Below, piece by piece: positions 16,238 to 62,520 of a DNA stretch of 64,000 nucleotides (the first letter of the stretch is position 1; every line of letters starts with the position of its first letter). A model generated the notes under the pieces. The model had not been told where the DNA came from and did no database searches. It saw only the letters and a program-made list of their open reading frames with translations. The DNA is from a bacterium (GTDB lineage: Bacteria; Patescibacteriota; Patescibacteriia; Veblenbacterales; UBA10138), in assembly GCA_020057885.1 (NCBI GenBank), contig JAGVEX010000019.1:84045-148044 (forward strand), given 5' to 3'. A program made the translations under genes and the position numbers.

Positions 16238-16272
16238 TAGAATTTAGATATTAGGATTTAGATATTAATTTA
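16238..16272 (+). promoter_or_regulatory. Heptad array 'tagaatt tagatat taggatt tagatat taattta', ending 8 nt before the trpS ATG
   Basis: Strict 7-nt periodicity. The same motif family lies immediately upstream of four minus-strand genes in the accessory cluster. Confidence 0.45.
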
Positions 16273-16279
16273 CTATATT

Positions 16280-17272
16280 ATGTTCCCTAAAAATAAAGTT
16301 ATTTTCTCTGCCGCCCAGCCGACTGGCGAGCTTCACTTGGGCAATTACCTAGGCGCTCTTAAAAATTGGGTGCACTTACAGCGCGATAATCAATGTTTTT
16401 ATGCTATTGTGGATTATCACGCTATTACCATTCCTTATGATCCCAAAGATTTTCCTAAAAAAGTAATGGATTTGGCACTGGATTATTTAGCCTTAGGCAT
16501 AGATCCTGAAAAATCCGTGGTGTTTATACAATCACACGTGCCCGAACACACTGAACTAGCCTGGATTTTAAATACCATTACACCGCTTGGGGAATTGGAA
16601 CGCATGACGCAGTTTAAAGACAAAGCTGAACAGCAACGCGGTTCTATTAATGCTGGATTATTAAACTACCCTGTTTTAATGGCGGCGGATATTTTGCTTT
16701 ATCAACCTGACTTGGTGCCTGTGGGTGAAGATCAAACCCAGCATGTGGAACTGACGCGCGTTATTGCGCGCAAATTCAACAGCGCTTTTGGCGAATATTT
16801 TAAAGAACCAAAAGTTTACGAAGCTACTATCGCGCGTGTAATGTCGCTCTTGGAGCCTGCTAAAAAAATGTCAAAATCTTTAGGGCCTAATCACTGTTTG
16901 GCTTTAAATGACCCGCCTGAAGTAATCCGTAAAAAAATTGCCAAGGCTGTTACAGACGAAGGCGGCTTGGCTGAAAACAGAGTTTCCGGCGGAAAAAATT
17001 TACTAGAACTTTTTAAAGTATTGTCGGATGATAAAGCTACCAAGGACGCTTTTGAAGAGCAATATAAAGCTGGAGAACTTAAGTATGCTGAATTCAAACC
17101 CGCTTTAGCCGAAACAATTATCAAAGTATTGGAACCAATTCAGGCCCGTCGTGCTGAACTAGCAGCCAAACCGCAAGAGGTAACTAGAATCTTACTAGGC
17201 GGCCGCGACAAAGCCAGATTAATTGCCCAAAAAACTTTACAGGATGTGAAAGAAAGAATGGGTTTAGTTTAA
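16280..17272 (+). CDS. trpS: Tryptophanyl-tRNA synthetase
   Basis: Class I motifs: 'ELHLGNYLG' (HIGH-like) and 'KMSKS'. 330 aa. Confidence 0.92.
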   Translation: MFPKNKVIFSAAQPTGELHLGNYLGALKNWVHLQRDNQCFYAIVDYHAITIPYDPKDFPKKVMDLALDYLALGIDPEKSVVFIQSHVPEHTELAWILNTITPLGELERMTQFKDKAEQQRGSINAGLLNYPVLMAADILLYQPDLVPVGEDQTQHVELTRVIARKFNSAFGEYFKEPKVYEATIARVMSLLEPAKKMSKSLGPNHCLALNDPPEVIRKKIAKAVTDEGGLAENRVSGGKNLLELFKVLSDDKATKDAFEEQYKAGELKYAEFKPALAETIIKVLEPIQARRAELAAKPQEVTRILLGGRDKARLIAQKTLQDVKERMGLV

Positions 17273-17295
17273 AGTTAATACCAAATTACAATACT

Positions 17296-17336: not shown

Positions 17337-17372
17337 CTGTGATTTATGTCCGGCCGGACCTTTTTCACAGGA
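17337..17372. repeat. GC-core palindrome, family member P1 ('cctgtga..gtccggccggac..tcacagg')
   Basis: Perfect 12-bp core 'gtccggccggac' with 7-bp outer arms. It shares the 'atttatgtcc-GC-ggac' motif with P7 at 63703. Confidence 0.5.
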
Positions 17373-17541: not shown

Positions 17542-18057
17542 GTGGGGAAGGATAATTCCCCTATGTATACACCTAGCCAACACCCATTCATACCTCAACC
17601 TAAAATCTTGCTCTCTAAGCATGAAAGATGGCGTCAGATAGCTAAAGTCTTAAGCCTATCTCAAGAGGCCAAGACTCGCTTGGAATGGTTTATATATCAT
17701 GAATCTCATGGTGCTAAAAACGTCTCCCGTACTGCTAGGCACTTTGGCATACATAGAGACACCTTCCACCATTGGCATAATAGATTTACTGAGACTAATT
17801 TAAGAAGTTTGGAAAGCCATTCCTGTGCTCCCCTTAAGCGTCGCACTTTAGCCTTAAATCAAAGTCAAGTAGATAGGATAATCAAACTTCGAAAGGAGCA
17901 TCTCTTATATGGCAAAATGAAACTTAAAGCTATGTATGAAAGCGAGTATGGCGAGGCTATCTCTTCTTGGCACGTGCAAAAGGTTATTAAACTATATCAT
18001 TTATATCCCCAGAGGAAACCACTAAAACACAATAAACGTCAAATAGGGCTTAGGTGA
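17542..18057 (+). pseudogene. IS481-family transposase, N-terminal (HTH) fragment, interrupted by an IS30 insertion
   Basis: HTH/OrfA-like region ('NVSRTARHFGIHRDTFHHWHNRF'). The matching integrase-core C-terminal fragment resumes at about 19190. Confidence 0.55.
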
Positions 18058-18059
18058 GT

Positions 18060-19100
18060 TCAACAAGTAAGTGCAACACTTGGTAAAATCCAAGCATATG
18101 ACACAATACCAACAATTAACCATTGAGGAACGAGAAAAGATACAAACAGGGTTGTGGGAAAGGAGATCGTTACGGGATATCGCCCGACTGCTTGGCCGAA
18201 ATGTCTCCACTATCTCCCGAGAGCTTCAGCGGAATACAGCAGGCGAGCGAAGACGCTACGTCCCCCGCTTAGCTGAAGAGCGGACACGAAGACGAATACA
18301 AGCACGTGGCCAAAGGGAACGACTGAAGTGTCCTCTCATACGTGAATATGCGATTAGGAAACTGAAAGATGACTACTCACCCGAACAAATCGCTGGCACG
18401 CTCTCAATCGAGCATCTGGCATATTCAATCAGCCCTGAGGCAGTCTATCAATTCATTTACGCGCAGTATCGGAGAGGCGGGTACGGACGGTGTCTTGGAG
18501 AAGACTTACGAGTTTACTTGAAACGCAAACACAAAATCCGCAAATTAAAATATGCGCTGTTCAAAGCAGTCAAAGGGCCAATAAAGAACCGTATTTTCAT
18601 TGATTATCGACCGCAAGAAGTCACCACTAGAATCATCTGCGGTCACTGGGAAGGCGACTCCATGGTGTCCCGTCAGAGCTCGGCTGGTTTAAATACACTG
18701 GTCGAACGAGTTACGGGGCTTATGCTTATCACTAAGATTCAAAACACCACGGCAGCTGAAACGACACAGGCGGTTATCCAACGGCTGAAACGTTTTCCGA
18801 TGAGGCTCCGTCAGACAATCACGGTTGATAACGGCCATGAGAATGCCGGACACGAAGACATTGTGAAGAGGATCAAAACAAAAATATTCTTTGCGCATCC
18901 GTACCATTCTTGGGAACGGGGAATAAATGAAAATGCCAACGGATTGATCCGTTGGTACTTACCGAAGGGAACTGACTTTGCTACAGTGAATGAAGAGCGC
19001 TTGAGAGAGATTGAATATAAACTCAACACCAGACCAAGAAAGCGGCTTGGCTGGAAAACACCACTCCAAGTTTTTAATCAGTGGGTGTTGCACTAGAATA
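18060..19100 (+). mobile_element. IS30-family insertion sequence (about 1.04 kb) nested inside the IS481-family transposase gene
   Basis: It contains one IS30 transposase gene. Candidate terminal inverted repeats share 'gtgcaacac' (18071-18079) and 'gtgttgcac' (19085-19093). Confidence 0.65.
18071..19096 (+). CDS. IS30-family DDE transposase (the real start is probably the ATG at 18098)
   Basis: N-terminal HTH ('LTIEEREKIQTGLWERRSLRDIARLLGRNVSTISRELQRN'), 'GHWEGDS', and the DDE region 'DNGHENAGH'. Confidence 0.85.
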   Translation: MQHLVKSKHMTQYQQLTIEEREKIQTGLWERRSLRDIARLLGRNVSTISRELQRNTAGERRRYVPRLAEERTRRRIQARGQRERLKCPLIREYAIRKLKDDYSPEQIAGTLSIEHLAYSISPEAVYQFIYAQYRRGGYGRCLGEDLRVYLKRKHKIRKLKYALFKAVKGPIKNRIFIDYRPQEVTTRIICGHWEGDSMVSRQSSAGLNTLVERVTGLMLITKIQNTTAAETTQAVIQRLKRFPMRLRQTITVDNGHENAGHEDIVKRIKTKIFFAHPYHSWERGINENANGLIRWYLPKGTDFATVNEERLREIEYKLNTRPRKRLGWKTPLQVFNQWVLH

Positions 19101-19189
19101 TTGAATGTAGCTTAAAAAGAAGCACATCACAGAGCTTTTAAGACAACCACACCCAGGCTTTCTTATTTGTTTAGACACTATTGTACTTT

Positions 19190-19671
19190 ATCAATTTAAC
19201 CTCAAACGCTATATCATCACTGGTATTGATTGGCAGGGCAAGATAGCCTATGCCAAAATGTATACTAATCATTCCTCTGTCTCAGCTACTGATTTCCTTA
19301 AGCGCTTATATTATCTCCTAGATGGCAAGATTGAAAACGTACTCCACGATAATGGCAGTGAGTTTGCTAAGCACTTTATAGAAGCTTCTAAGCAACTACA
19401 CCTCACCCAGTACTATACCAGGGTTAAGACCCCTAAAGACAACGCTGTTTGTGAACGCTTTAATCGTACCCTGAAGGAAGAGTTTCTATACCAAGGCAAC
19501 TTTCATCCTAACCTAGCTGTATTTAATCAAAATTTAACCAATTGGCTTATTGAATATAACTTTAAAAGACCCCACCAAAGCCTTAGGTATCAAACCCCTA
19601 TCCAAGCTGCCTTAAAACAGGGGTACTTGTCGGAGATGTACCCAGTACAAAGTATTGACAATTTGAGCTAG
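19190..19671 (+). pseudogene. IS481-family transposase, C-terminal integrase-core (rve) fragment
   Basis: 'LKRYIITGIDWQGKIAYAKMY', 'DNGSEF', and 'TPKDNAVCERFNRTLKEE' (DDE glutamate region). The frame is open upstream of the annotated Met back to about 19190. Confidence 0.55.
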
Positions 19672-26110: not shown

Positions 26111-26138
26111 TGTATCAATGTGTTAACACATTGATACA
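26111..26138. promoter_or_regulatory. 28-bp perfect palindrome centred on GTTAAC ('tgtatcaatgtgttaacacattgataca'), a trp-operator-like site
   Basis: It lies just downstream of the TrpR-like gene. A related half-site lies in the divergent promoter region at 26492. Confidence 0.5.
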
Positions 26139-26176: not shown

Positions 26177-26473
26177 TTATTTAAAACCTAAACGGGTTAA
26201 TACCAAACGGTAACCTCCCATACCCTGCCTTAACCAATGGGCCACACGCGCTACAGTAGTAGTGCTCATTCCCAAACGTCCCGCAATATCACGATAATCT
26301 AAGTCTCGCGATAGCATTTTAGCCACTTGAAGCCTATCAGCCATGTCCACTATTTCCTCTGGCGTGCAAAGATCCCTAAAAAATTTACGGCACTCGTCTG
26401 TTGTTTTAATCTTTAAAATAGCCTCAAATAGCTCGTTGGCCTCTTGTCTATCCCATTTCTTAGCACGTTTCAT
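26177..26473 (-). CDS. TrpR-like DNA-binding protein (YerC/YecD family)
   Basis: 98 aa with a C-terminal HTH ('YRDIAGRLGMSTTTVARVAHWL'). Size and pattern match YerC/YecD. Confidence 0.65.
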   Translation of the reverse strand: MKRAKKWDRQEANELFEAILKIKTTDECRKFFRDLCTPEEIVDMADRLQVAKMLSRDLDYRDIAGRLGMSTTTVARVAHWLRQGMGGYRLVLTRLGFK

Positions 26474-26491: not shown

Positions 26492-26520
26492 CTTTTGTAT
26501 TAATGTATTAACACGTTAAC
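26492..26520. promoter_or_regulatory. Operator-like half-site plus a 'ttaacac' direct repeat ('tgtattaatgtattaacacgttaacaca') between the regulator gene and glyA
   Basis: 19 of 20 nt match the left arm of the 26111 palindrome. Confidence 0.4.
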
Positions 26521-26609
26521 ACAGGGTTAAAATAATGTCAAATAAAAATTGTGGATAACTTACTAACCAATGGACAAAGGCTTAAAATATCGCTAATATA
26601 AAAGACGCT

Positions 26610-31582: not shown

Positions 31583-31634
31583 ATACCACCAAACCTACCT
31601 GCCAGTAGTCAGGGATTTAGGATTTTAAATTTTT

Positions 31635-34986: not shown

Positions 34987-35019
34987 AATACAAAATTAAA
35001 AATTTAACATTTTACATTT

Positions 35020-36369
35020 TCACCTTATCCACTCCACTGCCTCGTATATAGTTTTTACAGAGGCTATTTCCAGCCCTTTGGGTAATTTAGCATTGGCTGG
35101 CAACCCGGCTGTTAGGGCCTGTTTAAAACCCAAACGAGCGGCCTCCTGCAGACGCTTTTCTGCGCCCACCACCGGCCTTATCTCGCCACCCAAGCCTACC
35201 TCTCCAAAAACCACCAAATCATTCGGTAGCGGCCTTTTTAGGGCAGCTGAAGCCACCGCCGCGCATACTGCCAAATCCAAAGCCGGCTCACGGCTTTTAA
35301 ACCCACCTGCTAAATTAATATAAACATCACTAAAATTTAATTTCACTCCCGCGCGTTCAGCTAAAACCGCCAACAAAACCTGCAAACGATTAACATCAAA
35401 ACCAGTGGTAGCTCTTTTTGGATAATTTAATCTGGAGTGAGTTACCAATGCTTGTAACTCAATTAGCAAACTACGCGAACCTTCTAGCACCGCCGTAATA
35501 CAGGAACCAGCCCCCAAATGACGTTCAGCTAAAAATATAGCAGAAGGATTTGTTATCTCACGTAACCCCGCCTCGCCCATTTCAAACACACCAACTTCGT
35601 CGGTCGGACCAAAACGATTTTTATTAGCGCGTAAAAAACGTAAAGCTTGGTGTTCAACTCCATCTAAACTCAAAACCACATCAACTAAATGTTCAATTGT
35701 TTTGGGTCCAGCGGCTACGCCTTCTTTGGTAACGTGGCCAATTACAACCACTGCTATACCAGTTTCTTTGGCGAGTGCCACCAATTCTGACAAAATCATT
35801 TTAACTTGTGTGGGAGAGCCAGGATTACCCACCCCTTCGGACGCGCGTATGGCTTGCAAAGAATCAATTACTAATAAAACTGGGTTTAATTGCCGCGCTG
35901 TGGCTATCACTGTATTAATATCAACTTCATTGGTAAAAGAAATATTTTTACCTTTAAGTCCCAAACGTTTTAATCTGTTTGCTACTTGCTCCACAGATTC
36001 TTCGCCCGAAACATAAAGCACTGAGCCTGAACAACGCTCAGCCAAGCCAAGCAGTAAAGTGGATTTACCCACACCTGGCTCGCCGGTTAACAAAACAACC
36101 ACAGCCGAAGCGAGTCCTCCGCCTAACACTCTGTCTATCTCCACCCAGCCCGTAGCCAAACGGCGCGCTGGCGTTTCACTAATATGATCGCTAAGTGAAA
36201 CTGTGGCACCAGCGAGGTTCAACGCTGTGTGTTGAGTCTGACGGGTAACTGCGGTTGGCTCCGTGCCTACAGTGCCAAATTTACCACATTGGTTACAACG
36301 CCCTACCCATTTAGGGTATTGCGCGTCACAATTTGAGCAAATATAAATAATAGATGATTTAGGAGACAT
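35020..36369 (-). CDS. radA: DNA repair protein RadA/Sms
   Basis: N-terminal C4 zinc finger, Walker A 'GEPGVGKSTLLL', the 'KNRFG' motif, and a Lon-like C-terminus. Confidence 0.9.
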   Translation of the reverse strand: MSPKSSIIYICSNCDAQYPKWVGRCNQCGKFGTVGTEPTAVTRQTQHTALNLAGATVSLSDHISETPARRLATGWVEIDRVLGGGLASAVVVLLTGEPGVGKSTLLLGLAERCSGSVLYVSGEESVEQVANRLKRLGLKGKNISFTNEVDINTVIATARQLNPVLLVIDSLQAIRASEGVGNPGSPTQVKMILSELVALAKETGIAVVVIGHVTKEGVAAGPKTIEHLVDVVLSLDGVEHQALRFLRANKNRFGPTDEVGVFEMGEAGLREITNPSAIFLAERHLGAGSCITAVLEGSRSLLIELQALVTHSRLNYPKRATTGFDVNRLQVLLAVLAERAGVKLNFSDVYINLAGGFKSREPALDLAVCAAVASAALKRPLPNDLVVFGEVGLGGEIRPVVGAEKRLQEAARLGFKQALTAGLPANAKLPKGLEIASVKTIYEAVEWIR

Positions 36370-38168: not shown

Positions 38169-38257
38169 AAAATAAATATAAGAATTACGAATTATGAATC
38201 ACGAATCAAGAATAAAATTAAATTCATCATTCGGTATTCATGATTCAAAATGTTTTA
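38169..38257. repeat. Intercistronic heptad-repeat hairpin ('gaattac gaattat gaatcac gaatcaa ... tcatcat tcggtat tcatgat tcaaaat')
   Basis: 7-nt periodic 'GAATnnn' arm, then the complementary 'TTCnnnn' arm. It fills the whole spacer between two minus-strand genes. Confidence 0.5.
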
Positions 38258-39523
38258 CTATTGTAATTTTACGCTTCTAAGCTTGCCACTGGTATCGGTA
38301 AAATAAAGTATTTTTCCATCCTGAGAAATTGTTAAATTAGTAGCCGTGAGAGCAGTGCCTGTTTCGTCTATTGGCTCAGCCACCAAAGTGGTAGAACCAG
38401 TTTGCAAATTAACACGATAAATATAATCGGGAATATTATTGGCCATCTCACGTGTAAAACCAGCGCCTTCAGGCAACTCCTTGGGCACCGCGCAATAAGC
38501 CACCTCACCAGATAAATTACATTTATCCGACCAAGTAGCCAAACCTAAAGACTGTTTGTTGGAACCCACACTATCTGTAGCGGCATCTACCAGCCATAAT
38601 TCTGGTTTATAATTTGTTGTATCACTATAAACAGAATAAAGTAGTTTTTTACCATCGGGTGTCCAATTCGACTCAAAGCCCCGGCCATCAACTGTTAATT
38701 GCGGAAAATTTTCCCCATTTAAACCTATCAAAAGAACATTTTGTTGAAACAAGCCAGCTGGCTCACCAGTGCGCGACAAGGCCACTACTTGATTATTAGG
38801 AGACCATTCAACATCAACTTTATCAGCATTTTCGCCCATTGCTTCTATACCGGTAAGCCCCGAACCGTCTGGATTTACTGTAGTAATCCAATTATTAGAT
38901 AAACTATCCCCTAAATACTTACCGGCGATTTTTTGTCCATCACTCGAAAAAGAAAATTCAGTCATCTCTTTGGGCAAAGTATATTGTTTTTTACTCTGGA
39001 AATCATATAACACATTCGCGCCATCGGGAAATTCTAAAATAGCGCTATTGCTACTGGGTGCCCAAGTAACGGTTTGAACCTGGGGATATAAGGCGTCGGT
39101 TAAAAGACTTTTTGCACCGTCTGGAGAAATTTCATAAAATTTACCATCAGCCGCGTTATAATAGCGAACACTATCTCCGGTAGCACTGGCAGGAAACATT
39201 GTTGAGCCGCTAGTTAAAGCTGTAGCGGCTGTGGCACCACCAACAGCCACTGGCGAACCAGGTTGATTTGTTAAACCAGCATTAACATTAACGTTTACAT
39301 TTACATTAGAAATCGGCAAATTAACTCCGCCTGGACCACTTACATTAACATTGCCGTTTGTGGTAGGAGGAAAACCGGTTGGGCCATTTACGTTAACATT
39401 ATTATTGGGCAATGCTTGTTCTGATTTAGTAAATAAAATAAACAATAACCAAGCTAAAACACCAATAGCTATTACAACACCAACTGTTAATAAAATTTTA
39501 CGACGATCAATATTCTCAAACAT
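38258..39523 (-). CDS. TolB-like beta-propeller (PD40-repeat) protein with an N-terminal transmembrane anchor and an (NVN)n low-complexity linker
   Basis: Transmembrane helix, 'NVNVNGPTGF...NVNVNVNVNAG', then repeated 'DG.K..Y' propeller-blade motifs. Confidence 0.45.
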   Translation of the reverse strand: MFENIDRRKILLTVGVVIAIGVLAWLLFILFTKSEQALPNNNVNVNGPTGFPPTTNGNVNVSGPGGVNLPISNVNVNVNVNAGLTNQPGSPVAVGGATAATALTSGSTMFPASATGDSVRYYNAADGKFYEISPDGAKSLLTDALYPQVQTVTWAPSSNSAILEFPDGANVLYDFQSKKQYTLPKEMTEFSFSSDGQKIAGKYLGDSLSNNWITTVNPDGSGLTGIEAMGENADKVDVEWSPNNQVVALSRTGEPAGLFQQNVLLIGLNGENFPQLTVDGRGFESNWTPDGKKLLYSVYSDTTNYKPELWLVDAATDSVGSNKQSLGLATWSDKCNLSGEVAYCAVPKELPEGAGFTREMANNIPDYIYRVNLQTGSTTLVAEPIDETGTALTATNLTISQDGKILYFTDTSGKLRSVKLQ

Positions 39524-39531
39524 ATACTAAT

Positions 39532-40149
39532 TTATTTAAGATAGCTTCTCATTTGTTTCAGCAACTCAGTTTTTACTTCGGACCAATTGATGCGTTCCAA
39601 AAGAATGGGGTTAGGTTCACGTTCGGCTTCAACGAAATAAACCAAACTTTTAAGCAAATGGAGATGATTATATTTTACACCTTTATACTTTTTATCAAAC
39701 CAATCTAATAACTGTTTCAAAGAATAAACGCGCAATAACACATACAAATCAAAAAAATCTTTGCGACTGCCTCGGCTAGAAATGGCTTGCAGTTTCATAC
39801 AGCCAATATCGGCTGGTGCGGCCAAATTTACTCCCTGATAAGATACTAACCGACGCAATAATTTATAAGGATAAAAAAGAAAACTTAATCTTATTCCAGC
39901 CAATCTAATATGCAAAGTACCAATGTCTTCTGAGACAACTGTTATTTTACCAATTTTAGATAGTTGCCTTTTAAGTAAGTTCGAAGAAAATTTATGCGCT
40001 GAAAACCAATCAAAATCCAGCGATTGCCTGTGGCCACACTGCAAAGCCAGGGCTGTTCCACCAGCCATATACCAATCTCCATTTTTTAAAATTCCTCCTA
40101 ACTTAGGCAGTAATCTTTTGGCAGTTGGTAGCAAAATTTCTTCATGCAT
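39532..40149 (-). CDS. AbiEii-family nucleotidyltransferase (type IV toxin-antitoxin toxin-like)
   Basis: 'MAGGTALALQCGHRQSLDFDWF' matches the AbiEii / DUF1814 N-terminal nucleotidyltransferase motif. 205 aa. Confidence 0.65.
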   Translation of the reverse strand: MHEEILLPTAKRLLPKLGGILKNGDWYMAGGTALALQCGHRQSLDFDWFSAHKFSSNLLKRQLSKIGKITVVSEDIGTLHIRLAGIRLSFLFYPYKLLRRLVSYQGVNLAAPADIGCMKLQAISSRGSRKDFFDLYVLLRVYSLKQLLDWFDKKYKGVKYNHLHLLKSLVYFVEAEREPNPILLERINWSEVKTELLKQMRSYLK

Positions 40150-40159: not shown

Positions 40160-40453
40160 TCATTTTTTAATAACTACCTTCCATAACGCCTTACTTTTAG
40201 CATCAAGCTCACGAGTTTTAACAATAACGTTATACAACAAACTTGGGGAATATATTTTTTTTATAACCTTCCAATCCCCAATATCGCCAAATTGCAAAAC
40301 ACGTTTAATAATAAAAGCGCTATGCTTTTTAGGTTTTAACGTTTTGGTTGCTATATCCCAAAAAAGACCTTGTGAAAATTTACTACTAAATAAGCTCATA
40401 TATAAATTATAGCATATTTTAATTGTTTTTACAACCTTTGCGGCTTTTACCAC
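40160..40453 (-). CDS. Small protein upstream of the AbiEii-like gene. It may be the cognate antitoxin.
   Basis: 97 aa, 10 nt upstream of the toxin-like gene on the same strand. No family recognised. Confidence 0.3.
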   Translation of the reverse strand: MVKAAKVVKTIKICYNLYMSLFSSKFSQGLFWDIATKTLKPKKHSAFIIKRVLQFGDIGDWKVIKKIYSPSLLYNVIVKTRELDAKSKALWKVVIKK

Positions 40454-40559: not shown

Positions 40560-41108
40560 TTGTTAACAATATTAATGATAATTAATTTTATGGAACAACT
40601 AAGTCTAACAAAACAAATCCTTCTTACCTTACTCGATGGGGCTTCTGAATTAAGAGGCATGCATAAAAATATGAGACTTATATCTCCTTTTCGCGGCATA
40701 ACCAAAACGCCAAATTATTATGTATCGCTTGGACGACTCAAACGGCGTGGTTACATAAAACAAATAAATAATAACTATTATTTAACTTTACAGGGCAAAC
40801 AATTAGCGCAACATTTACTTGTCAGACAAGCTCTTAAGATAAAAAGCCAACGTTGGGACGGGCAATGGCGTATGGTGTGTTTTGATATTCCAGAAAAATT
40901 AAGACGCGAACGAGCGGCTTTACGCAATTTTCTTTATCGTTCCGGATTTCGAAAATTACAAGAAAGTGTCTGGCTAACACCATATGACGTAATAAAAGAA
41001 GCTGTTGACACATGGAAAGAACTTGGGCTGGCGCCTTATGTTCGCACAGCGCTTATAAAATCGCTTGATAACGAAATTGAATTTAAAAAACTATTTAAAC
41101 TCACCTAA
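40560..41108 (+). CDS. PaaX-like protein with an N-terminal winged-helix and a C-terminal Cas2-like motif (cassette 1)
   Basis: The N-terminal half looks like a wHTH. The C-terminal half has 'WRMVCFDIPEKLRRERAALRNFLYRSGFRKLQESVWLTPYD', a Cas2/PaaX_C-like beta-alpha-beta core. It is a paralogue of ORF 53388..53939. Confidence 0.55.
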   Translation: MLTILMIINFMEQLSLTKQILLTLLDGASELRGMHKNMRLISPFRGITKTPNYYVSLGRLKRRGYIKQINNNYYLTLQGKQLAQHLLVRQALKIKSQRWDGQWRMVCFDIPEKLRRERAALRNFLYRSGFRKLQESVWLTPYDVIKEAVDTWKELGLAPYVRTALIKSLDNEIEFKKLFKLT

Positions 41109-42802: not shown

Positions 42803-43285
42803 TCATTTAAACGGACTAAATATATCATTCGCCACAGAACATACCAAATTTAACCACTGCCCACCCAAAGCCTCGCAAATTACCTCCGGCTGATCTTTAA
42901 TAGTAATAAACAAACCAATTATTATAAACAAGATAAATAATACAAGAAAATCTATAATTATATATAACACCTTACGCCATAATGATAATTTCCAACTGGG
43001 TCTAATAATCGGCAAAACCAGTTCAGCATTAATAGTAAGAAAAATTATTATTAACGGAAACACGAGCCAAGAAAATGGCAGTAGGGCTAATTTAAAATTA
43101 TCAAGGCCTTTTTGCAGTGCTGTATCAGCCGCTTTTTGGATTAAACTAGGACCCGATCCTTTGCTGGATTCTACTTTTAGCATTTTTAAATAACCACCGC
43201 GTCGACCAGCCTCTAGGTTATCTTTCATTACCTGTTTATTATACTCTTCAGCTGATTCTTGATTATTGTTATCTTTATCGGGCAT
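42803..43285 (-). CDS. Hypothetical membrane protein (160 aa, 2-3 transmembrane helices)
   Basis: Hydrophobic segments. Lies within the type IV secretion-like cluster. No family recognised. Confidence 0.35.
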   Translation of the reverse strand: MPDKDNNNQESAEEYNKQVMKDNLEAGRRGGYLKMLKVESSKGSGPSLIQKAADTALQKGLDNFKLALLPFSWLVFPLIIIFLTINAELVLPIIRPSWKLSLWRKVLYIIIDFLVLFILFIIIGLFITIKDQPEVICEALGGQWLNLVCSVANDIFSPFK

Positions 43286-43377
43286 AATATTAGTGAATTA
43301 CGAATCATGAATCACGAATTAACAATTAAAAATAAATTCAGTATTCAGTATTCGTGATTCGGTATTCAAAAATCAAA
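43286..43377. repeat. Intercistronic heptad-repeat hairpin ('gaattac gaatcat gaatcac gaattaa ... ttcagta ttcagta ttcgtga ttcggta ttcaaaa')
   Basis: Strict 7-nt periodicity. 'gaatcacgaa' pairs with 'ttcgtgattc'. It fills the whole spacer between two minus-strand genes. Confidence 0.5.
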
Positions 43378-43941
43378 CTACTCACTCTCCCAACTCGCGC
43401 TATCTACCAACCAATTTTCTCCTGACTTACTTAAACTAACACGCAGGGTAGCATAAGAAATTTTAACCTCACCGTCACGGGTGAATACTTCCTGGCGCTG
43501 GGTTGAGATGGTTAATTCGGCCGCGCTGTCAGTTTGTCTATCTACTTTGGCCACCAAAGCTTTGGTAGTAACACTATAAAAACCAGCTGGCTTGGTTCCG
43601 GATTTAATAATACTATTCACCCTCGTTTGAAAAGAGGGGGTTAAAATGCCTGTTAAATTCTTTAAATTTTCATAAGGCATATCGTTGGAATAGGTGCCAT
43701 AGCGTTCGGCAAAGTTAAGCGCTAAAACACGCGCCGAGAGTGTGGTATCTGTTAGTTTGGGGATCGGCTCAACAACGCCAGTTGGCGTATTTATTGTTGG
43801 TGTATTTGTTGAAACTGCTGGCTGATTAATATTTGTGTTTACATTTGTATTATTATTTTGTAACCAAAAATAAAGCCAAACCGCTAGTAAAATGACTAAA
43901 ATTATTACTAAAACTAAAAGAATTTTGGAGCGACGAGACAT
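43378..43941 (-). CDS. Bitopic membrane protein, possibly a VirB8-like scaffold
   Basis: N-terminal transmembrane helix, a Thr/Asn-rich linker, and a roughly 120-aa extracytoplasmic domain. Its position next to VirB4 suggests the role. Confidence 0.3.
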   Translation of the reverse strand: MSRRSKILLVLVIILVILLAVWLYFWLQNNNTNVNTNINQPAVSTNTPTINTPTGVVEPIPKLTDTTLSARVLALNFAERYGTYSNDMPYENLKNLTGILTPSFQTRVNSIIKSGTKPAGFYSVTTKALVAKVDRQTDSAAELTISTQRQEVFTRDGEVKISYATLRVSLSKSGENWLVDSASWESE

Positions 43942-43960
43942 AAAATAATTAATAAAAGTT

Positions 43961-44110
43961 AATAAAATCCTAAATCTTAAATCCTAATATCTAAATAAAT
44001 TTTAATAACAGAAAATTTAATTAAATTATTTTGTTTTTAGATTATGTTTGTAAATTTTACGCATTGGGAATTGGGAATTATTTAGGGTTTAGACATTAAG
44101 ATTTGAAATT
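43961..44110. promoter_or_regulatory. About 150-bp intergenic repeat unit (copy A). It holds 'TAAATCC'-type heptads and 'cattgggaattgggaatt' and also occurs at 46808-46945.
   Basis: Copies A and B are about 85% identical by eye. On the minus strand the heptads read 'tagatat taggatt taagatt taggatt' and sit upstream of the ATG at 43941. Confidence 0.45.
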
Positions 44111-44188
44111 TATATTATATTCTTTAATCCACCTGCAACAATTAATTTAATATTCTTAATTCATGGTTCGGTATTCGTGATTCTAAAA

Positions 44189-46054
44189 CTAACCAATGTC
44201 TGGCTCTTTCAGGCTTGCTTCAAATTCCTTTTTGGCTTGCTCTATTTCCAAAAGCTGACGAGGATCAGAAGTAATAAGCTGATCTTCGGTGTAAGAAGCC
44301 ACTATTTTAATAGCCGCGTGCTTAGACCCGGCAAAGAAAATGCCCTCACCCACACCACACTCCAAAAGTAAATATTTTTCTCCCTCTGTCAGTAAGAAGG
44401 TTTTTACTACTTTATCAATTCCAGCAGGAGACTGTTTGAGCAATAATTGCAAGGCTGAGTTATTAACAATTGCCTGACCATAGGGCGAGGTTAAGAAATC
44501 ATTTACATCTTGTGTAATTGTGGTAACGCCAAGATAATATTTACGACAACGCTTAACTAACGCAAAAATAAACTTGGCGCTATCTTCGTTTTGCATTAGC
44601 CACCACGCTTCATCAATAACTAAAACACGTTTTTTCATTTCTGAGCGCACTACATTCCAAATGTAATTAACGATTGTATAAATCGCAATCGGCCGTAACT
44701 CATCTTCTAAATCGCGTACAGAAAATACTACTAATTGGTTTTTTACATCCACGTTAGTGGGCCTGTTAAAAAGTCCGGCAAAAGTACCGTCGGTATATTT
44801 TTTAAGCCTCAATACCAAATCTTCGCCCCCTTGCATACCCGCGAGCACCTCTTGAAAATCAGCCATCACCGGCGACTCCACTTTGGTTAAATCGGAATTG
44901 GGCGTAATATCTTTTTTGGCATAAGTTTCTAAGAGGGCTCTATCAACCAACGAATCCTCTTGATGAGTAAGGGTGCCAAGCATTAAACGCATTAAACCTT
45001 TTAGGGTAATTACAGCGGAACGAATAATATCGCCTGTATTTACCTCGCCCACTGGCCTGGGTAAATCAAAGGGATTAATTTTAGATTCAGAATTCAAAGA
45101 AATATTAATGTAAGCACCACCCACAGCATCGGTTAAATGCTTATATTCCATTTCTGGATCAATAATAATTACATCGGTACCCATCATTAAACTACGCAAC
45201 ACTTCCAGTTTTACAGCATAGCTTTTGCCAGCGCCCGAAGTGGCAAAAACAGTCATATTGGCATTTTGCAAACTAAATCTATCAAATAAAATCAAGGAAT
45301 TATTGTGTCTATTTATACCGTATAAAATACCACTATCACTAGTTAATTCCGAGGAAATAAAAGGGAAAGAAGAAGCGGCGGGCGAACTGTTCATATTAAA
45401 GTAAACTTGTAGTTCGTCGTTGGCGAGGGGTAAGGTGGAGTTAAAGCCTTGTTCTGATTGCCAAAGAGCGCGCCGTGAATAAACCAACTTTGAACCAAGC
45501 ATGCTTTCTACTTCCTCTGTTATTTTGTCTAACTCTTTTTTATCTGGAGCATACAGAGTAAGATAAAGCCCGACTTGAAAAAAACGTTCCGTGCCTTGAG
45601 TTAAACTGTCGCGCAATTGTTCAATATCGTGCAAAGCTGTTTCGCGAATCGGGTCGCGCGGAGCGCCTTTATCATGGTCGGCCACCAGTTGGGCCTCAAT
45701 TGCACCCACACGATTACGCAGTTGTTTTAAAATGACTTCTGTTTTTACATTATAGAAAAACATACTTACATCCAAAGTCGCGTTCATATTCACAATTGGC
45801 GCAAACCAACCAACCGAGATATAGCGAGGATAAGTGAGTATAAATAAAGTACGCAAATATACGCCGTTTAACTCCACGTGTTCCGATTGAACACGAAAAG
45901 CAGCTGGTGCAATTAAATCACGCACCTTTACCGAGCCCTCGCGCAATAAGCGCTCAGCCTCTAAGAGTTCCTTTTCAGTAGCTTGCCCCAACTCTTCCAC
46001 GGGCGGAGGGGGCGGCGCTAATTCACTGGTTACTTTTGATACATCAATGGCCAT
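44189..46054 (-). CDS. VirB4/TrbE-family type IV secretion ATPase, C-terminal ATPase-containing part
   Basis: Walker A 'ATSGAGKSYAVK', Walker B 'RVLVIDEAWWLM', and a VirB4-like middle region. 621 aa. Confidence 0.75.
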   Translation of the reverse strand: MAIDVSKVTSELAPPPPPVEELGQATEKELLEAERLLREGSVKVRDLIAPAAFRVQSEHVELNGVYLRTLFILTYPRYISVGWFAPIVNMNATLDVSMFFYNVKTEVILKQLRNRVGAIEAQLVADHDKGAPRDPIRETALHDIEQLRDSLTQGTERFFQVGLYLTLYAPDKKELDKITEEVESMLGSKLVYSRRALWQSEQGFNSTLPLANDELQVYFNMNSSPAASSFPFISSELTSDSGILYGINRHNNSLILFDRFSLQNANMTVFATSGAGKSYAVKLEVLRSLMMGTDVIIIDPEMEYKHLTDAVGGAYINISLNSESKINPFDLPRPVGEVNTGDIIRSAVITLKGLMRLMLGTLTHQEDSLVDRALLETYAKKDITPNSDLTKVESPVMADFQEVLAGMQGGEDLVLRLKKYTDGTFAGLFNRPTNVDVKNQLVVFSVRDLEDELRPIAIYTIVNYIWNVVRSEMKKRVLVIDEAWWLMQNEDSAKFIFALVKRCRKYYLGVTTITQDVNDFLTSPYGQAIVNNSALQLLLKQSPAGIDKVVKTFLLTEGEKYLLLECGVGEGIFFAGSKHAAIKIVASYTEDQLITSDPRQLLEIEQAKKEFEASLKEPDIG

Positions 46055-46060
46055 AAAAAT

Positions 46061-46098
46061 TTAAATCCTAAATTCGAAATCCTAAATCCTAAAAAATT
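46061..46098 (-). promoter_or_regulatory. Heptad array ending 3 nt before the VirB4-C ATG (minus strand reads 'taggatt taggatt tcgaatt taggatt taaattt')
   Basis: Same motif family as the arrays at 16238, 46808 and 62486. Confidence 0.45.
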
Positions 46099-46107: not shown

Positions 46108-46797
46108 TTAGTTTGTTTCTACTTGCAATTTATCTAATTCGACTAATTTTTGTTGCTCTCTAATTTCGGGATTATAAGTTGTATAATAAAGCTCAATCAA
46201 ACTTTGCGTATCCAGCCTAACCGCTTTTACACCCATAGAAGATAAGCCCGATTGAATATATCCGGTGCGCCTATCCAAAGCCTCGGCGTAACGGTTAAAA
46301 TCGGTACGCGATAATTTTACTGAATAAGCCGCGGAAAAAATTGAAGTAAAGCGTCTAAAAAAAGAACGCCGTTTATCTGACCTGTGGTCATATGTTACCA
46401 CCACATAAAACCGTTTGGTCATAATATCACCTAAACTAATAAGCTCGCGAATATAAGCGAGATACTCTGTAATTTGCACGCGTAAAAGTTCGTTAGTTTG
46501 TTGTTTTTGTAAAGCCTCCAAATTAGTCAAATATTTATCTATATTAAGTTTACGCGATTGAATAACTATCTGTAGAGGAGAATCCAAAGAATTAAGAAAA
46601 TTAATATAGGCCTGAATAGTGGCATTTTGTTCATCTTCACTTTTAAGCGCAAAATTAACCGAGGAACACAAAAACACCGAGCGCAGAGTGCCATCTTTCA
46701 TCACCACACAATTATCGTGAATTTCGGCAATATCTAAATACGAACTGGTAGGCGGACCGGCTTTGGCTTTTTTTGGTTTAGTTTCAGTTTTGGACAT
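46108..46797 (-). CDS. VirB4 N-terminal domain (CagE/TrbE/VirB-type) encoded as a separate ORF
   Basis: 'CVVMKDGTLRSVFLCSSVNFALKSEDEQNATIQAYINFLNSLDSPLQIVIQSRKL' follows the characteristic VirB4 N-domain pattern. It is in a different frame from the ATPase ORF and separated from it by 53 nt. Confidence 0.55.
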   Translation of the reverse strand: MSKTETKPKKAKAGPPTSSYLDIAEIHDNCVVMKDGTLRSVFLCSSVNFALKSEDEQNATIQAYINFLNSLDSPLQIVIQSRKLNIDKYLTNLEALQKQQTNELLRVQITEYLAYIRELISLGDIMTKRFYVVVTYDHRSDKRRSFFRRFTSIFSAAYSVKLSRTDFNRYAEALDRRTGYIQSGLSSMGVKAVRLDTQSLIELYYTTYNPEIREQQKLVELDKLQVETN

Positions 46798-46807
46798 AAA
46801 ATATAAA

Positions 46808-46945
46808 TTAAATCCTAAATTCTAAATCCTAATATCTAAATAAATTCCAATACCAAAAACCAATTTAATTATTTTTAGATTACACTTATCAATTTTACAC
46901 ATTGGGAATTGGGAATTATTTAAGATTTAGACATTAAGATTTAAG
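46808..46945. promoter_or_regulatory. About 150-bp intergenic repeat unit (copy B) with 'TAAATCC' heptads, ending 13 nt before the VirB4-N ATG
   Basis: See copy A. The minus strand reads 'tagatat taggatt tagaatt taggatt taattta'. Confidence 0.45.
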
Positions 46946-46962
46946 GCTTAACTAACATATCT

Positions 46963-47418: not shown

Positions 47419-47458
47419 AGGTGAAAGTAAGTGTAAGAGTATTGAGTAAGAGTAAAAA

Positions 47459-47803
47459 TTAATTAGCCATTAAACCAGTTAACATGCGAGCTATTTCTTC
47501 ACTTTGTTGATAAATGATATCAAATCTAGGTTGCGTTATAAGTGATTTATCTACTAGCAACATACTTACGTTGATAACTTCATAAACTGAACCTTTGGCA
47601 ATATTGTAAAAATTATTTGCTTCTTTTTTAGATTTTCTGCCACTACCCTCAGCAATGTTATTAGGCACCGAAATAGCTGCTCTAATTAAATTATTGCCTA
47701 TAGTATAACGATAATCATTTGGTAATTTTTTAACGTCATCTATTATGTCGCTACAAAACCTTTGTGATTTTTTCCATACTTCTAAGGTTTCAAATTTAAA
47801 CAT
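47459..47803 (-). CDS. Four-helix-bundle protein (TIGR02436 / '23S rRNA intervening sequence protein' family)
   Basis: 'FETLEVWKKSQRF', 'NIAEGSGRKSKKE' and 'IAKGSVYE' signatures. 114 aa. Flanked by 'GTAAGAG' heptad repeats. Confidence 0.7.
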   Translation of the reverse strand: MFKFETLEVWKKSQRFCSDIIDDVKKLPNDYRYTIGNNLIRAAISVPNNIAEGSGRKSKKEANNFYNIAKGSVYEVINVSMLLVDKSLITQPRFDIIYQQSEEIARMLTGLMAN

Positions 47804-47829
47804 ACTCTTACTCTTAACTCTTACTCTTA

Positions 47830-50052
47830 CTAAAATCTTATCTTCTGATTAAAATCTATTATGGCGTTGAATTCGGCTTCGGAAAGTGTTTGTTCGCCTT
47901 GTGTTTGCAAACTAGCCACTATTTCAACAATTGATTTTTCTTGTTCAATGCTAGCTCGGCCTAGTTTTAAATAGAGTTGGTACACAGGCGAAGCTTGCCA
48001 AGAACGCACTGCTTCCACCCGCCGCGATACTGAAGTTTCGCCAATCAAATCTATTTTGGCTCGAACTTTATTCAAAGCCTCCACGGGCGATGAATCAAGC
48101 CTCCTAAAATCAACTAGGTTCAAACTTTTTAACTCTTCCAGTGGACCTAAGGTTCGTGGTGGCGCTTTAATATCTGTTAATTGTGGCCTAATGTTGTTAG
48201 TTGCTCCTAATTCTTGTCCACTTGTTCCTAATTTGGGTGGTGATGGGGGCTGTGCCCCGTGATCAACTACAGTTGATTTTACGGGGGGTGGGGGGGCGGC
48301 TTTGGAAATTTCTTTTAACAATTCCTCCCGCCAATTTTTAAATTTATCCTCACTAAGCGGCTTGTCTTCAATTTTAGTTGCTTGGGCAGCTACCCTAATA
48401 TCTGAACTCTGAATTTCTTTAGGATTTAGCCTGCCTGCGACTCGATTGAGCTCGCCGAAATCCGGTAGGTAGGGATTTTCGGATTTAGGATTTAATTCAC
48501 CAATCTTATCACTCTTGGGTAAAACCACTTGGGGGCCAGTGACCGGTGATGGAGGGCTAACAACTATTGGCTTATCTTCCCCCATTAATTTATCCAACTC
48601 GCTTTGCATTTTTTCCTGTTCTGTTTGTGGCTTACTATTTACCACTGGTGCAGGTTCTTGCTTCGTGATTCTTACTTCGTGATTCTTACTTCGTGATTCA
48701 AACTCACTTTTAGCATCTTCAATAATTTTTATAACTTGTTCTGTTTTATCAACCGGCAAACCTAAACCGCCCGAAGTTACTGGTTTTAATAATGTTTCGC
48801 GCACTTCCACCACATTGCGCACATCTTTTAAGTGTGATACAAACAAATTTATAAACCTGCGCTTGCCAACTTCGTCCTTAAAACTAAAATTATGTTTTTT
48901 AATTGTTTCATCGGCGAGCACTCTTAATTTTTCTTCTAATGTATTCATGATTCGTAATTCAGTATTCGGTATTCTTAATTTATCAACTTCTTTCTCATCT
49001 TCCAAGTTAAAAAAGAATGCCGGTTCAGTAGTTTTTAAGGCTTGAGGAACAAGTTGATTTGTTATTGGTGATACTAATTCTTCTGTCTGTACTCGTGCTT
49101 TGTAATCAGATGCAGTTAATTTTGTGGAGACTGGTCCTGAAGCAGACATTTTAACCACTGCTGGCGCTAACCGAACTGAAATTGGTAGCTCTGCCACCTC
49201 AGTTGCTATTGGTACAGGGACTATTCCAAATGATTGCTGGATAGTTATCGTATTATTTTTCTGTAAATCAATTTTACTTGCCTCTTTATTATTTAAAATA
49301 CTGTTTACTTTAGCGAAAATATCCTTAATACTATTTTCATTATATTCCTCAAACCAACCACCTTTCACCCAACCAGATTTAGCCCCGTCTATCGGAATAC
49401 TTTCCTCTAACCCCTCTAATTCAGTTGATAACAAATGGCAATGTTCATAAACATTTATCAAGTCTCTAAATTTGTCACGCGAGGCAGGTGACAACACCCT
49501 TAATAATTGCGATGAGGAAAAATACTGTTCTTGTTGATATTTATCACTTCTTTTATTGGCCGTAAATACTAAAAAATCTTTTAAAAAGCCGCCAACGGTT
49601 AGGTTGTTTTCTTTCCAATCTGGTAATCTTATTTTTTCTTGATTATTTAACAAAACGTCTATGATTTGTTTTTTTAATTTATTTCTATCTTCATAAACTA
49701 ATATACTTAATAAAGCGCTTTTAAATTTATTATTCAGTTTAAAATCTTCTATCTGCCACGCATCATTAATATGATAATGAAATTGTTCAACAATCTCACT
49801 TTCGTTTAACAATGATAATCCTACCCACTTGCAATGAGCGATGATCTTTTGATAATTACTATATAATTGACCAAACTTCGAATCAATTTTACTCTCTTTT
49901 AAACCAAACTCTAAAGATCTCGCTAATTTATAAGCAGACTCATAATCATCATACTTTTCTATATCACTCAAGCTAGTCAACATCTCCTGATAAACTACAA
50001 GCGATGTTAATGGATATTGTTCAATTAATTGTTTTATACTTGCCATAGACAA
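47830..50052 (-). CDS. Hypothetical cytoplasmic protein (740 aa) of the type IV secretion-like cluster, with a Pro/Lys-rich low-complexity C-terminal third
   Basis: No transmembrane helix or signal peptide. Heptad-type DNA repeats are embedded in the coding sequence at 48660-48700 and 48945-48980. Confidence 0.45.
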   Translation of the reverse strand: MSMASIKQLIEQYPLTSLVVYQEMLTSLSDIEKYDDYESAYKLARSLEFGLKESKIDSKFGQLYSNYQKIIAHCKWVGLSLLNESEIVEQFHYHINDAWQIEDFKLNNKFKSALLSILVYEDRNKLKKQIIDVLLNNQEKIRLPDWKENNLTVGGFLKDFLVFTANKRSDKYQQEQYFSSSQLLRVLSPASRDKFRDLINVYEHCHLLSTELEGLEESIPIDGAKSGWVKGGWFEEYNENSIKDIFAKVNSILNNKEASKIDLQKNNTITIQQSFGIVPVPIATEVAELPISVRLAPAVVKMSASGPVSTKLTASDYKARVQTEELVSPITNQLVPQALKTTEPAFFFNLEDEKEVDKLRIPNTELRIMNTLEEKLRVLADETIKKHNFSFKDEVGKRRFINLFVSHLKDVRNVVEVRETLLKPVTSGGLGLPVDKTEQVIKIIEDAKSEFESRSKNHEVRITKQEPAPVVNSKPQTEQEKMQSELDKLMGEDKPIVVSPPSPVTGPQVVLPKSDKIGELNPKSENPYLPDFGELNRVAGRLNPKEIQSSDIRVAAQATKIEDKPLSEDKFKNWREELLKEISKAAPPPPVKSTVVDHGAQPPSPPKLGTSGQELGATNNIRPQLTDIKAPPRTLGPLEELKSLNLVDFRRLDSSPVEALNKVRAKIDLIGETSVSRRVEAVRSWQASPVYQLYLKLGRASIEQEKSIVEIVASLQTQGEQTLSEAEFNAIIDFNQKIRF

Positions 50053-53291: not shown

Positions 53292-53325
53292 TGCCAAAAA
53301 GTGTCCGGCCGGACACTTTTTGGCA
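53292..53325. repeat. GC-core palindrome P4 (34-bp perfect: 'tgccaaaaagtgtccggccggacactttttggca'), the left border of cassette 2
   Basis: Perfect palindrome with an A5 - GC hairpin - T5 layout. It is part of a roughly 45-bp direct repeat shared with 53973-54016. Confidence 0.6.
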
Positions 53326-53978: not shown

Positions 53979-54014
53979 ATGCCAAAAAGTGTCCGGCCGG
54001 ACACTTTTTGGCAT
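53979..54014. repeat. GC-core palindrome P5 (36-bp perfect: 'atgccaaaaagtgtccggccggacactttttggcat'), the right border of cassette 2
   Basis: Perfect palindrome, a direct repeat of P4. Confidence 0.6.
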
Positions 54015-62477: not shown

Positions 62478-62485
62478 ACTATAGT

Positions 62486-62520
62486 TAAATCCTAAATCCT
62501 AAACTCTAATTTCTAAACAA
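62486..62520 (-). promoter_or_regulatory. Heptad array ending 10 nt before the giant-gene ATG (minus strand reads 'tagaaat tagagtt taggatt taggatt taactat')
   Basis: Same motif family as the arrays at 16238, 46061 and 46808. Confidence 0.45.

Follow-up and report, generated by a model that had tools for sequence, protein, structure and literature searches.

Tandem heptad arrays at operon junctions of a Patescibacteria genome as candidate arms of stem-loop elements resembling rRNA intervening sequences

Heptanucleotide repeats near start codons were first noted in 1990, in cyanobacteria, and later in Xanthomonas, Beggiatoaceae and Bacteroidetes, and there is no agreement on their origin or function. 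The same question is raised by a stretch of 64,000 nucleotides (hereafter the window) from contig JAGVEX010000019.1 of a member of the Patescibacteriota, in which tandem arrays of 7-nt units lie shortly upstream of five genes. The initial annotation, made from the sequence alone, proposed that these arrays are stacked -10 elements of promoters for leaderless or short-leader mRNAs. Our analysis suggests instead, with a probability of about 0.6, that the arrays form the arms of small stem-loop elements with inverted repeats, which resemble the intervening sequences (IVSs) of 23S rRNA, sit at co-transcribed gene junctions and are kin to cassettes carrying a gene of the PF05635 family. What is new here is best filed as heptamer-repeat, IVS-like stem-loops in mRNA operons instead of rRNA, together with a lead on the origin of the heptamers.

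The arrays before the five genes exist and are not random. A search of the window with the pattern TTAGRWWTTAGRWWTTAGRWW (three TTAGRWW units, up to two mismatches) gave 14 overlapping matches in exactly five places (Table 1), compared with a mean of 0.16 and a maximum of 2 in 100 dinucleotide-preserving shuffles. All five arrays are oriented in the sense of the downstream gene, as had been noted, and end 7-23 nt from its ATG. The periods had been described as perfect; in fact, each array has four TTAGNNN units, variable at three positions, and then a degenerate TTAA unit. A pattern-free scan of the whole window for self-similarity at fixed lags (periods 4-12) detected six regions with period 7 (0.05 expected) and none or one with any other period. 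A second unit family, GAATYAY, had 12 matches in the window against 0.09 expected; TTAGRWW occurs at five loci and GAATYAY at six. Hexamer arrays, a TCCCAAT doublet and inverted partner arrays were also found. The five sites of the initial annotation were thus correct, but its list was incomplete, lacking the GAATYAY family, the inverted partners, the hexamer arrays and the arrays at 31612-31634 and 34991-35021. The gene block at 36-63 kb on the minus strand is, according to Pfam, a Patescibacteria-type operon resembling those of type IV secretion systems (T4SSs), with genes for T4SS pilins, a DsbA-like protein and PrgI, N and C open reading frames (ORFs) of VirB4, a 1002-aa membrane protein and a 2768-aa giant protein; trpS sits after the RNase J gene. 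The gene names given earlier agreed with Pfam.

One cassette within the T4SS-like operon is intact. Its ORF, 47459..47803, encodes a protein of PF05635 ('23S rRNA intervening-sequence protein', Avd-like; Pfam E = 1.4e-29; TIGR02436), a four-helix bundle, and the two arms on either side of it are 86% complementary, forming a terminal stem that encloses the ORF. For comparison, we fetched 80 related loci with VirB4-C (labelled L001 onward; all from metagenome-assembled genomes of Patescibacteria, 70-88% identity, 1.41 Mb in total), which together with the window make up a set of 81 sequences. Small genes are inserted between the T4SS genes of these relatives (L005, L007, L008, L011, L012, L015 and others), and nine of the ten tested belong to PF05635. 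The PF05635 profile detected 25 genes in 14 of the 81 sequences, every one of them in the orientation of the operon. In 52% of cases the two flanks of the gene are inverted-complementary (at least 16 of 21 positions), compared with 2.2% of 1079 control genes (P = 2e-11), and the flanks also score higher than controls for period 7 (P = 1e-7 and 1e-9); the arms start right at the start and stop codons. Arrays were found in 12 of the 14 loci with a PF05635 gene and in 20 of the 67 without (P = 1.6e-4), a comparison that is confounded by GC content. Degraded PF05635 remnants occur in array-flanked gaps of six loci (L005, L007, L008, L012, L022 and L049).

Aligned with one another, the five window arrays share their register with three sequences from relatives: the 3' arm of the intact L011 cassette (gene at 6939-7295, TTAG-type arms), that of the L012 pseudogene and an array of L063. 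Judged from these sequences, the arrays share ancestry with the arms of PF05635 cassettes. Paralogues of the PF05635 gene that are 85-87% identical carry the same arms at different junctions, and therefore the cassette moves or duplicates as a unit. The cassette of the window is kept, with an unchanged number of arm units, in strains with 95% and 99% protein identity, although the DNA of the cassette ORF differs at about 9% of sites in the former; this comparison of unit numbers covers three strains at one locus. No transposase or reverse transcriptase was found beside the cassettes, and a search for phage homologues of the window's four-helix-bundle protein found none.

The gaps also tend to fold. 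Of 57 gaps with arrays, 33 give a sense-RNA fold of z < -2 (mean z -2.6), in which the stop-proximal array pairs with the start-proximal one. An inverted 28-mer (at least 19 of 28 positions) is present in 35 of 52 array-bearing gaps and in 41 of 203 array-free control gaps. The stems are periodic: a conserved 4-nt core (GAAT/ATTC, CTAA/TTAG, AGCT or GGGT/ACCC) is paired, and the three variable positions are often unpaired. Among the five reported arrays, a terminal stem was found for three. The arms downstream of VirB4-C form a 24-bp stem in the sense RNA (module 43955-44120, z -2.46), whose loop contains TCCCAAT twice (44063-44079), and those between PrgI and VirB4-N form 29 pairs (module 46800-46955, z -2.93). 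The 5' arm region of the former is a direct-repeat copy of 46862-46942 (85%). A 150-bp direct repeat carrying a duplicated regulatory module had been proposed here. The duplication is real but imperfect, comprising an 81-nt block (85%) and a 61-nt block (84%), and it does contain two of the arrays; the module is, however, a stem-loop element ended by inverted arrays. Upstream of the giant gene the whole gap 62478-62631 folds, with its two arms paired (z -2.15), and both arm types match the arms around the PF05635 gene at 5181-5591 of L015. The GAATYAY modules 38169-38257 and 43286-43377 likewise fold with paired arrays. We accordingly regard three of the five arrays as 3' arms of ORF-less elements and the other two as lone 3' arms, all of one family. 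Because they have neither a PF05635 ORF nor a remnant of one, we file them as ORF-less derivatives and not as full members of the IVS type.

Several observations weigh against this interpretation. A tblastn search found no PF05635 remnant in the three ORF-less modules of the window or beside their arms, so that arm homology is the sole evidence for their descent from full cassettes; and an intact PF05635 gene adjoins only 11 of the 81 intergenic arrays called under strict criteria. For the trpS and VirB4-C arrays there is no terminal stem, partner arm or predicted structure: the RNase J-trpS gap does not fold (z +1.59), and folding of the VirB4-N/VirB4-C gap is at chance level (z +0.31). Permuting the order of the heptads barely lowers complementarity (median difference 1), and there is no position-specific compensatory signal; the stems are therefore register-degenerate, and covariation analysis is inapplicable to such repeat stems. 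Sense and antisense strands fold equally well (24 vs 33) without G-U asymmetry, so that folding does not tell a role at the RNA level from one at the DNA level. Arrays of the same family also occur in frame inside one ORF, which the hairpin model does not explain, and the window contains no RNase III gene. Finally, start-proximal arrays are more numerous than stop-proximal ones (35 vs 14), a possible sign that the 3' arm is under some additional constraint, although ORF calling may bias this count.

If the arrays are indeed arms of IVS-like elements, the full form would consist of a tandem array, a PF05635 ORF and an inverted array. Loss of the internal ORF would leave an ORF-less hairpin spanning the gap between the stop codon of one gene and the start codon of the next, and further decay would leave lone arms. 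By analogy with the 23S IVSs of Coxiella and Leptospira and with Haemophilus hmw, the arms may pair in the polycistronic RNA, bringing the stop and the start together, and RNase III may cut the stem. The insert would thus be tolerated, the downstream cistron would receive a short processed leader of residual heptads, and the arrays would act after transcription, not as promoters.

A close known system is the IVS of Coxiella, which has an S23p ORF, a 28-bp terminal stem and GACAGAT heptamers upstream of the ORF in strain-variable number, and which is excised by RNase III (PMC4990558). The 23S IVSs of Coxiella burnetii and Leptospira share with the cassettes a PF05635 ORF between complementary termini (a stem of some 25-30 bp), tandem heptamers immediately before the start of the ORF (two to three GACAGAT units) and an ORF prone to decay; such IVSs are considered selfish or mobile. 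They lie, however, in helix 25 or 45 of 23S rRNA, whereas the elements described here lie between protein-coding operon genes (T4SS, glycolysis, cas), have both arms composed wholly of tandem 6-8-nt units and are mostly ORF-less, and their excision by RNase III is proposed by analogy. ORFs of the 23S_rRNA_IVP type are also found in rRNA insertions of the Candidate Phyla Radiation (CPR) (PMC11270868). There is no rRNA within the window, and Rfam matched only two tRNAs there, so the arrays correspond to no known RNA family. In the 5' untranslated region (UTR) of hmw, a transcribed (ATCTTTC)n array has been shown experimentally to be a hairpin arm cut by RNase III (PMC12721329). The Haemophilus influenzae hmw1A 5' UTR thus resembles our arrays in having a heptamer array as a hairpin arm before a surface-protein gene, and there the cut changes expression. 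The hmw tract has at least 11 perfect, phase-variable units and a G-rich, non-repeat partner arm, whereas the arrays here have four to five imperfect units and arrays as partner arms, and the cassette arms showed no variation in copy number.

Other repeats of bacterial gaps share some of these features. An excess of heptamers in such gaps has been documented, including short tandemly repeated repetitive sequences (STRRs), GGGAATC of Xanthomonas (70-75 inverted pairs, mostly transcribed) and GGGGATT of Nostoc (PMC4692102); TAACTGA repeats occur in Beggiatoaceae, Cyanobacteria and Bacteroidetes (PMC4679880), and Nostoc heptamers at start codons have no known partner (preprint 10.1101/2022.06.06.494920). 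Like these heptameric simple sequence repeats and STRRs, our arrays have a 7-nt unit in two to six or more tandem intergenic copies, many a few nucleotides before start codons, with one unit at many loci per genome; the published repeats are transcribed and, in Xanthomonas, form inverted pairs. The arrays here differ in phylum and units, in the presence of several families per operon and in their explicit, statistically supported link to PF05635 genes, which the papers on the published repeats do not make. Repetitive extragenic palindromes (REPs), bacterial interspersed mosaic elements (BIMEs) and miniature inverted-repeat transposable elements are likewise short imperfect palindromes that occur only in transcribed gaps separating co-directional or convergent genes, with non-autonomous copies outnumbering autonomous ones, and are tolerated as RNA stem-loops. 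REPs, however, are not made of tandem short units and are mobilized by RAYT transposases, whereas our cassettes have no transposase; and convergent gaps are depleted of arrays here.

The distribution of arrays in the relatives bears on the alternatives. The 80 loci contain 103 arrays of period 7, compared with 1-20 for the other periods from 4 to 12, and the units vary between genomes and within loci (GAATCAA, GCAAATG, TTAGAAA, CTAAACC, AGCTAAA, CTAACTC in 12 copies, GGGGATT), with a median of 4.7 units per array. Over the window and the 80 loci, the density was 37-fold higher in gaps than in ORFs (0.70 vs 0.019 per kb), and nearly all ORF-internal arrays belong to one protein family, that of ORF 47830..50052 of the window. 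The 740-aa product of this ORF has homologues in at least 10 loci, which carry one to three such arrays with differing units, always in a stop-free orientation. Intergenic arrays lie right against the stop codon of the preceding gene or the start codon of the following one. Array density was 1.13 per kb in co-directional gaps (76 arrays in 67.1 kb), 0.12 in divergent gaps (2 in 17.3 kb, about a tenfold depletion) and 0.21 in convergent gaps. When only array-bearing loci were considered, divergent gaps still had 2 arrays against 8.7 expected (P = 0.006) and convergent gaps 3 against 11.2 (P = 0.003). At the RNase J-trpS junction, eleven relatives have either no array (three relatives, with junctions of 11-22 nt), an ATTTTGA-type array or an ACTCTT hexamer array. 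In L001 and L003 (85-88% VirB4-C identity) the gene order is the same, and the T4SS junctions measure 0-20 nt and have no arrays. The arrays are dispensable, being absent or different at homologous junctions, and because of this they are facultative insertions with turnover and not conserved parts of promoters. The loci of L001 and L003 have 57% GC, compared with 38% in the window, and tightly packed operons; these two and many CA* records are titled 'uncultured Gammaproteobacteria', although the loci are of Patescibacteria type. VirB4 is split into an N ORF of about 230 aa (46108..46797) and a C ORF of about 620 aa (44189..46054), likewise in every relative inspected. In the window and L001-L008 the two are separated by 0-240 nt, and the L005 gap also carries an inserted PF05635 gene.

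The promoter reading, in which stacked -10-like elements start leaderless or short-leader transcripts, draws on the resemblance of TAGAAT, TAGGAT and TAGATA to TAnnnT, on the sense orientation and closeness to the ATG of the five arrays, and on start-proximal arrays being twice as frequent as uniform placement predicts (35 vs 17.6). We consider it very unlikely, since arrays are depleted in divergent gaps, where promoters must lie, and some of them follow stop codons or lie within an ORF. Relatives have units without resemblance to a -10 element at the corresponding positions (CTAAACC, AGCTAAA, ACTCTT, GAATCAC), and the same junctions can be only 0-22 nt long. A sigma-70 consensus scan gave 37 promoter-like sites, no excess over shuffles (38.4), none of them inside any array, and neither a -35/-10 hexamer pair at 16-18 nt nor an extended -10 was found in the arrays. 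The promoter reading is thus disfavoured, not disproved. A scan for intrinsic terminators found none in the arrays. The arrays could also be neutral, functionless by-products of replication slippage biased to 7-nt units (Mrazek 2007) and independent of any element. The documented heptamer excess in many bacteria (PMC4692102, PMC4679880), the dispensability and turnover of the arrays, their occurrence, oriented so as to lack stop codons, within the disordered linker of a protein and the fall of array density with GC content (rho -0.35) all fit this idea. It does not account for one unit family with the same register and unit number (four plus one) at five sites and in other genomes, for inverted pairs far commoner than in control gaps, or for the strong cross-phylum association with one gene family. 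Moreover, the unit number is constant between strains about 9% diverged in the cassette ORF, and convergent gaps, where neutral repeats should be tolerated, are depleted. We therefore regard slippage as an improbable explanation.

A binding platform, which the initial annotation had raised in the form of a factor recognising period 7, is likewise unlikely in our judgement. Here a ring-shaped or multimeric protein would read the 4-nt core every 7 nt, one core per subunit, and so regulate how the downstream cistron is translated or how stable it is; this role could fall to the pentameric PF05635 protein or to a factor like HutP, TRAP, CsrA or omega. The construction of the unit from a conserved 4-nt core and three variable nucleotides would suit such a reader, as would the roughly five units per array and the five chains in each of the entries of the PDB relatives 2gsc and 2rld. 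The arms co-vary with the PF05635 subfamily, and of the two arms the 3' one is the better preserved. Each operator array of omega (pSM19035) holds 7-10 WATCACW heptads, placed in direct and inverted orientation; these operators share with our arrays the 7-bp period and the joint occurrence of direct and inverted arrays, and GAATCAC nearly matches WATCACW. UAG-N4 spacing equals that of the HutP site; the TTAGRWW arrays show this pattern, and the other arrays lack UAG. A scan of about 45 window proteins found no HutP, TRAP, CsrA, ribbon-helix-helix or Csp family, most units are unrelated to WATCACW, and the divergent gaps that bear promoters are avoided. At least four different cores in one 25-kb operon would require several specificities. 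The sole PF05635 gene of the window has hexamer arms, not TTAG or GAAT heptads, and co-variation of arm and protein is equally expected from co-inheritance. Sites for omega-like ribbon-helix-helix proteins, HutP, TRAP and CsrA were thus rejected, owing to the lack of such a protein among those scanned and to the number of cores, and are kept only as a minor rival. An unidentified binder has likewise been proposed for the Beggiatoa and Nostoc repeats (PMC4679880; 10.1101/2022.06.06.494920). We give still less credence to phase variation, in which gain or loss of heptads would switch T4SS or surface genes. The unit is not a multiple of three, arrays precede pilin, VirB4 and giant surface-protein genes, hmw offers a precedent with a 7-nt repeat (PMC12721329), and perfect tracts in relatives reach 12-15 units (L033, L087). 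The window arrays, in contrast, are short and imperfect and also precede the housekeeping genes trpS and recG and follow stop codons; no unit-number polymorphism was found in the cassette arms of the three strains, including the diverged one, or in an independent assembly. As for the AGGA within the heptads, its exclusion as a Shine-Dalgarno sequence on grounds of distance proved correct (the last AGGA is 11, 12, 15, 23 and 26 nt from the ATG), and a standby site is ruled out by the same spacing and by the lack of purine cores in other arrays.

The association of repeat and gene extends beyond the lineage. A tblastn search of plasmids with the PF05635 protein of the window gave 23 records, mostly from Cyanobacteriota, with Riemerella and Gemmatirosa in addition, and we inspected 18 genes. 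Flank arrays were present in 16 (period 7 in 14, period 8 in two) and absent in two; the hosts are Nostoc, Calothrix, Anabaena, Pseudanabaena, Geminocystis, Riemerella and Gemmatirosa (Cyanobacteriota, Bacteroidota and Gemmatimonadota). The flanks are inverted-complementary in 10 of the 18 (for example GGGAACA/CTGTTCC, GGGTGTA/TACACCC, GGTGACA/CTGTCAC and GGTTTAA/AACCTTG), and ORF-less inverted pairs of the same families were found near these genes. The genes lie between cas6 and cas4 (Anabaena sp. 90, Pseudanabaena), between cas10 and cmr3 (Picosynechococcus) and within conjugation (T4SS) operons of Nostoc plasmids. In other CPR genomes, four-helix-bundle cassettes with inverted 6- or 7-nt arrays lie between the PGK and GAPDH genes. 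The genes at cas, Nostoc and PGK-GAPDH sites (L082, L087, L149, L091, L092, L156 and L158) are always co-oriented with the operon.

These observations suggest a broader and more speculative possibility, which we put forward only tentatively: PF05635 cassettes may be the source of the heptameric repeats over-represented in many bacteria, with the pentameric, Avd-like protein as a possible reader. Mobile elements of the form array, gene and inverted array would invade transcribed junctions, be tolerated through folding and processing, and then decay. In one version about five heptads would wrap one pentamer; in another, the protein might assist retro-mobility in the way that Avd assists the reverse transcriptase of diversity-generating retroelements (DGRs). 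PF05635 proteins are widespread and, to our knowledge, have no known function outside DGR Avd. The family does resemble DGR Avd (PMC10053308). If this proposal were true, it would unify cyanobacterial STRRs, the TAACTGA and GGGAATC repeats, the Coxiella IVS heptamers and the CPR arrays, and would give a role to a family that lacks a function. In the library searched, we found no paper linking heptamer arrays in general to PF05635 genes. The physical tie between heptamer repeats and PF05635 in four phyla points to a testable mechanism, the processing of register-degenerate stems by RNase III. Gaps in core operons of Patescibacteria (T4SS, glycolysis) are largely filled by such insertions and should not be annotated as promoters.

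Table 1. Arrays, arms and cassette of the window (z, folding score of the sense RNA; matches are those of TTAGRWW or GAATYAY according to the family of the array)
Feature	Position	Strand	Pattern match	Location and remarks
Intact PF05635 cassette	47419..47831	-		5' arm 47803-47831 (sense AGTAAG-type hexamers), ORF 47459..47803, 3' arm 47426-47454
Lone TTAGRWW array (4 units + TTAA)	16237..16271	+	16237-16271	62-nt RNase J-trpS gap, 8 nt before trpS ATG; no partner arm
TTAGRWW 3' (start-proximal) arm, ORF-less hairpin	43971..43995	-	43967-43994	between VirB4-C and gene 43378..43941
5' arm of ORF-less hairpin, AAATCTTAATGTCTAAACCCTAAAT	44088..44112	-		partner of 43971..43995
Lone TTAGRWW array	46058..46093	-	46058-46092	fills 53-nt VirB4-N/VirB4-C gap, 7 nt before ATG
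TTAGRWW 3' arm, second ORF-less element	46806..46841	-	46805-46839	between PrgI and VirB4-N
5' arm, second ORF-less element	46925..46953	-		inverted repeat, 84% complementary
TTAGRWW 3' arm, ORF-less element	62482..62521	-	62482-62516	between TSP3-repeat gene and giant gene
5' arm (sense AAAATTC/AAAGCTC/AAACGTC heptads)	62595..62634	-		partner of 62482..62521
GAATYAY ORF-less hairpin	38179..38250	-	38182-38216, 38226-38246	fills PD40 gene/DsbA-like gene gap; arms 38226-38250 and 38182-38216; z -3.14
GAATYAY ORF-less hairpin	43295..43375	-	43295-43329	between genes 43378..43941 and 42803..43285; inverted repeat; z -2.93
Lone GAATNNN array (about 5 units)	44150..44185	-	44163-44183	immediately after VirB4-C stop codon
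Two GAATCAC-type arrays	48655-48699, 48940-48974	-	48665-48699, 48940-48967	in frame, low-complexity linker of ORF 47830..50052
Two-unit remnant, GGGATTTAGGATTTTAAATTTTT	31612..31634	+		abuts recG ATG; 3' end identical to that of VirB4-C array
AAAATGT-type period-7 array	34991-35021			fills 33-nt gap, methylpurine glycosylase gene/radA

An array similar to the AAAATGT-type one of Table 1 lies inside ORF 2866..4260, at 3535-3563. Exact-protein look-ups gave only 100%-identical fragments from one sequencing run (SRR6489632); the independent Logan assembly of this run (L089, L090) is 100% identical to the window, and its contigs end at heptad arrays or modules, so that the repeats fragment short-read assemblies.

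Within the T4SS-like operon, a 75-nt direct repeat (39450-39524 and 41295-41369, 95% identical) duplicates the 5' end of gene 38258..39523. The two copies bracket an insert of 1.85 kb with genes for AbiEii (39532..40149), DUF6922 (40160..40453) and a PaaX_M/Cas2-like protein (40560..41108), which looks like a toxin-antitoxin or regulator module inserted into the operon. GC-cored palindromes (AAAAGTGTCCGGCCGGACACTTTTT, present twice in identical form, CACTTTTGGTCGGTCGACCAAAAGTG and GTGACGGCCGTCA) bracket both PaaX-like genes, and a related palindrome adjoins an insertion sequence (positions 53297-53321, 53985-54009, 41205-41230, 40518-40530 and 17346-17359). Similar palindromes, gtccggccggac, occur in gaps of L007 and L008. 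Another type of cassette may have these palindromes as its operators or terminators. The insertion sequence (17542..19671) lies just downstream of trpS and is broken into three ORFs (HTH; HTH_38 plus rve; rve_3).

The H+-pyrophosphatase frame (1-2186) is broken near 1524-1545 into two overlapping minus-strand ORFs, with positions 1-137 of Pfam H_PPase in the upstream one, reflecting a frameshift, a pseudogene or an assembly error. A gene of the Trp repressor family (26177..26473) is flanked by a perfect 26-nt palindrome, GTATCAATGTGTTAACACATTGATAC, and by the related TGTATTAATGTATTAACACGTTAACAC (26112-26137 and 26496-26522), which are probably the gene's own operators.

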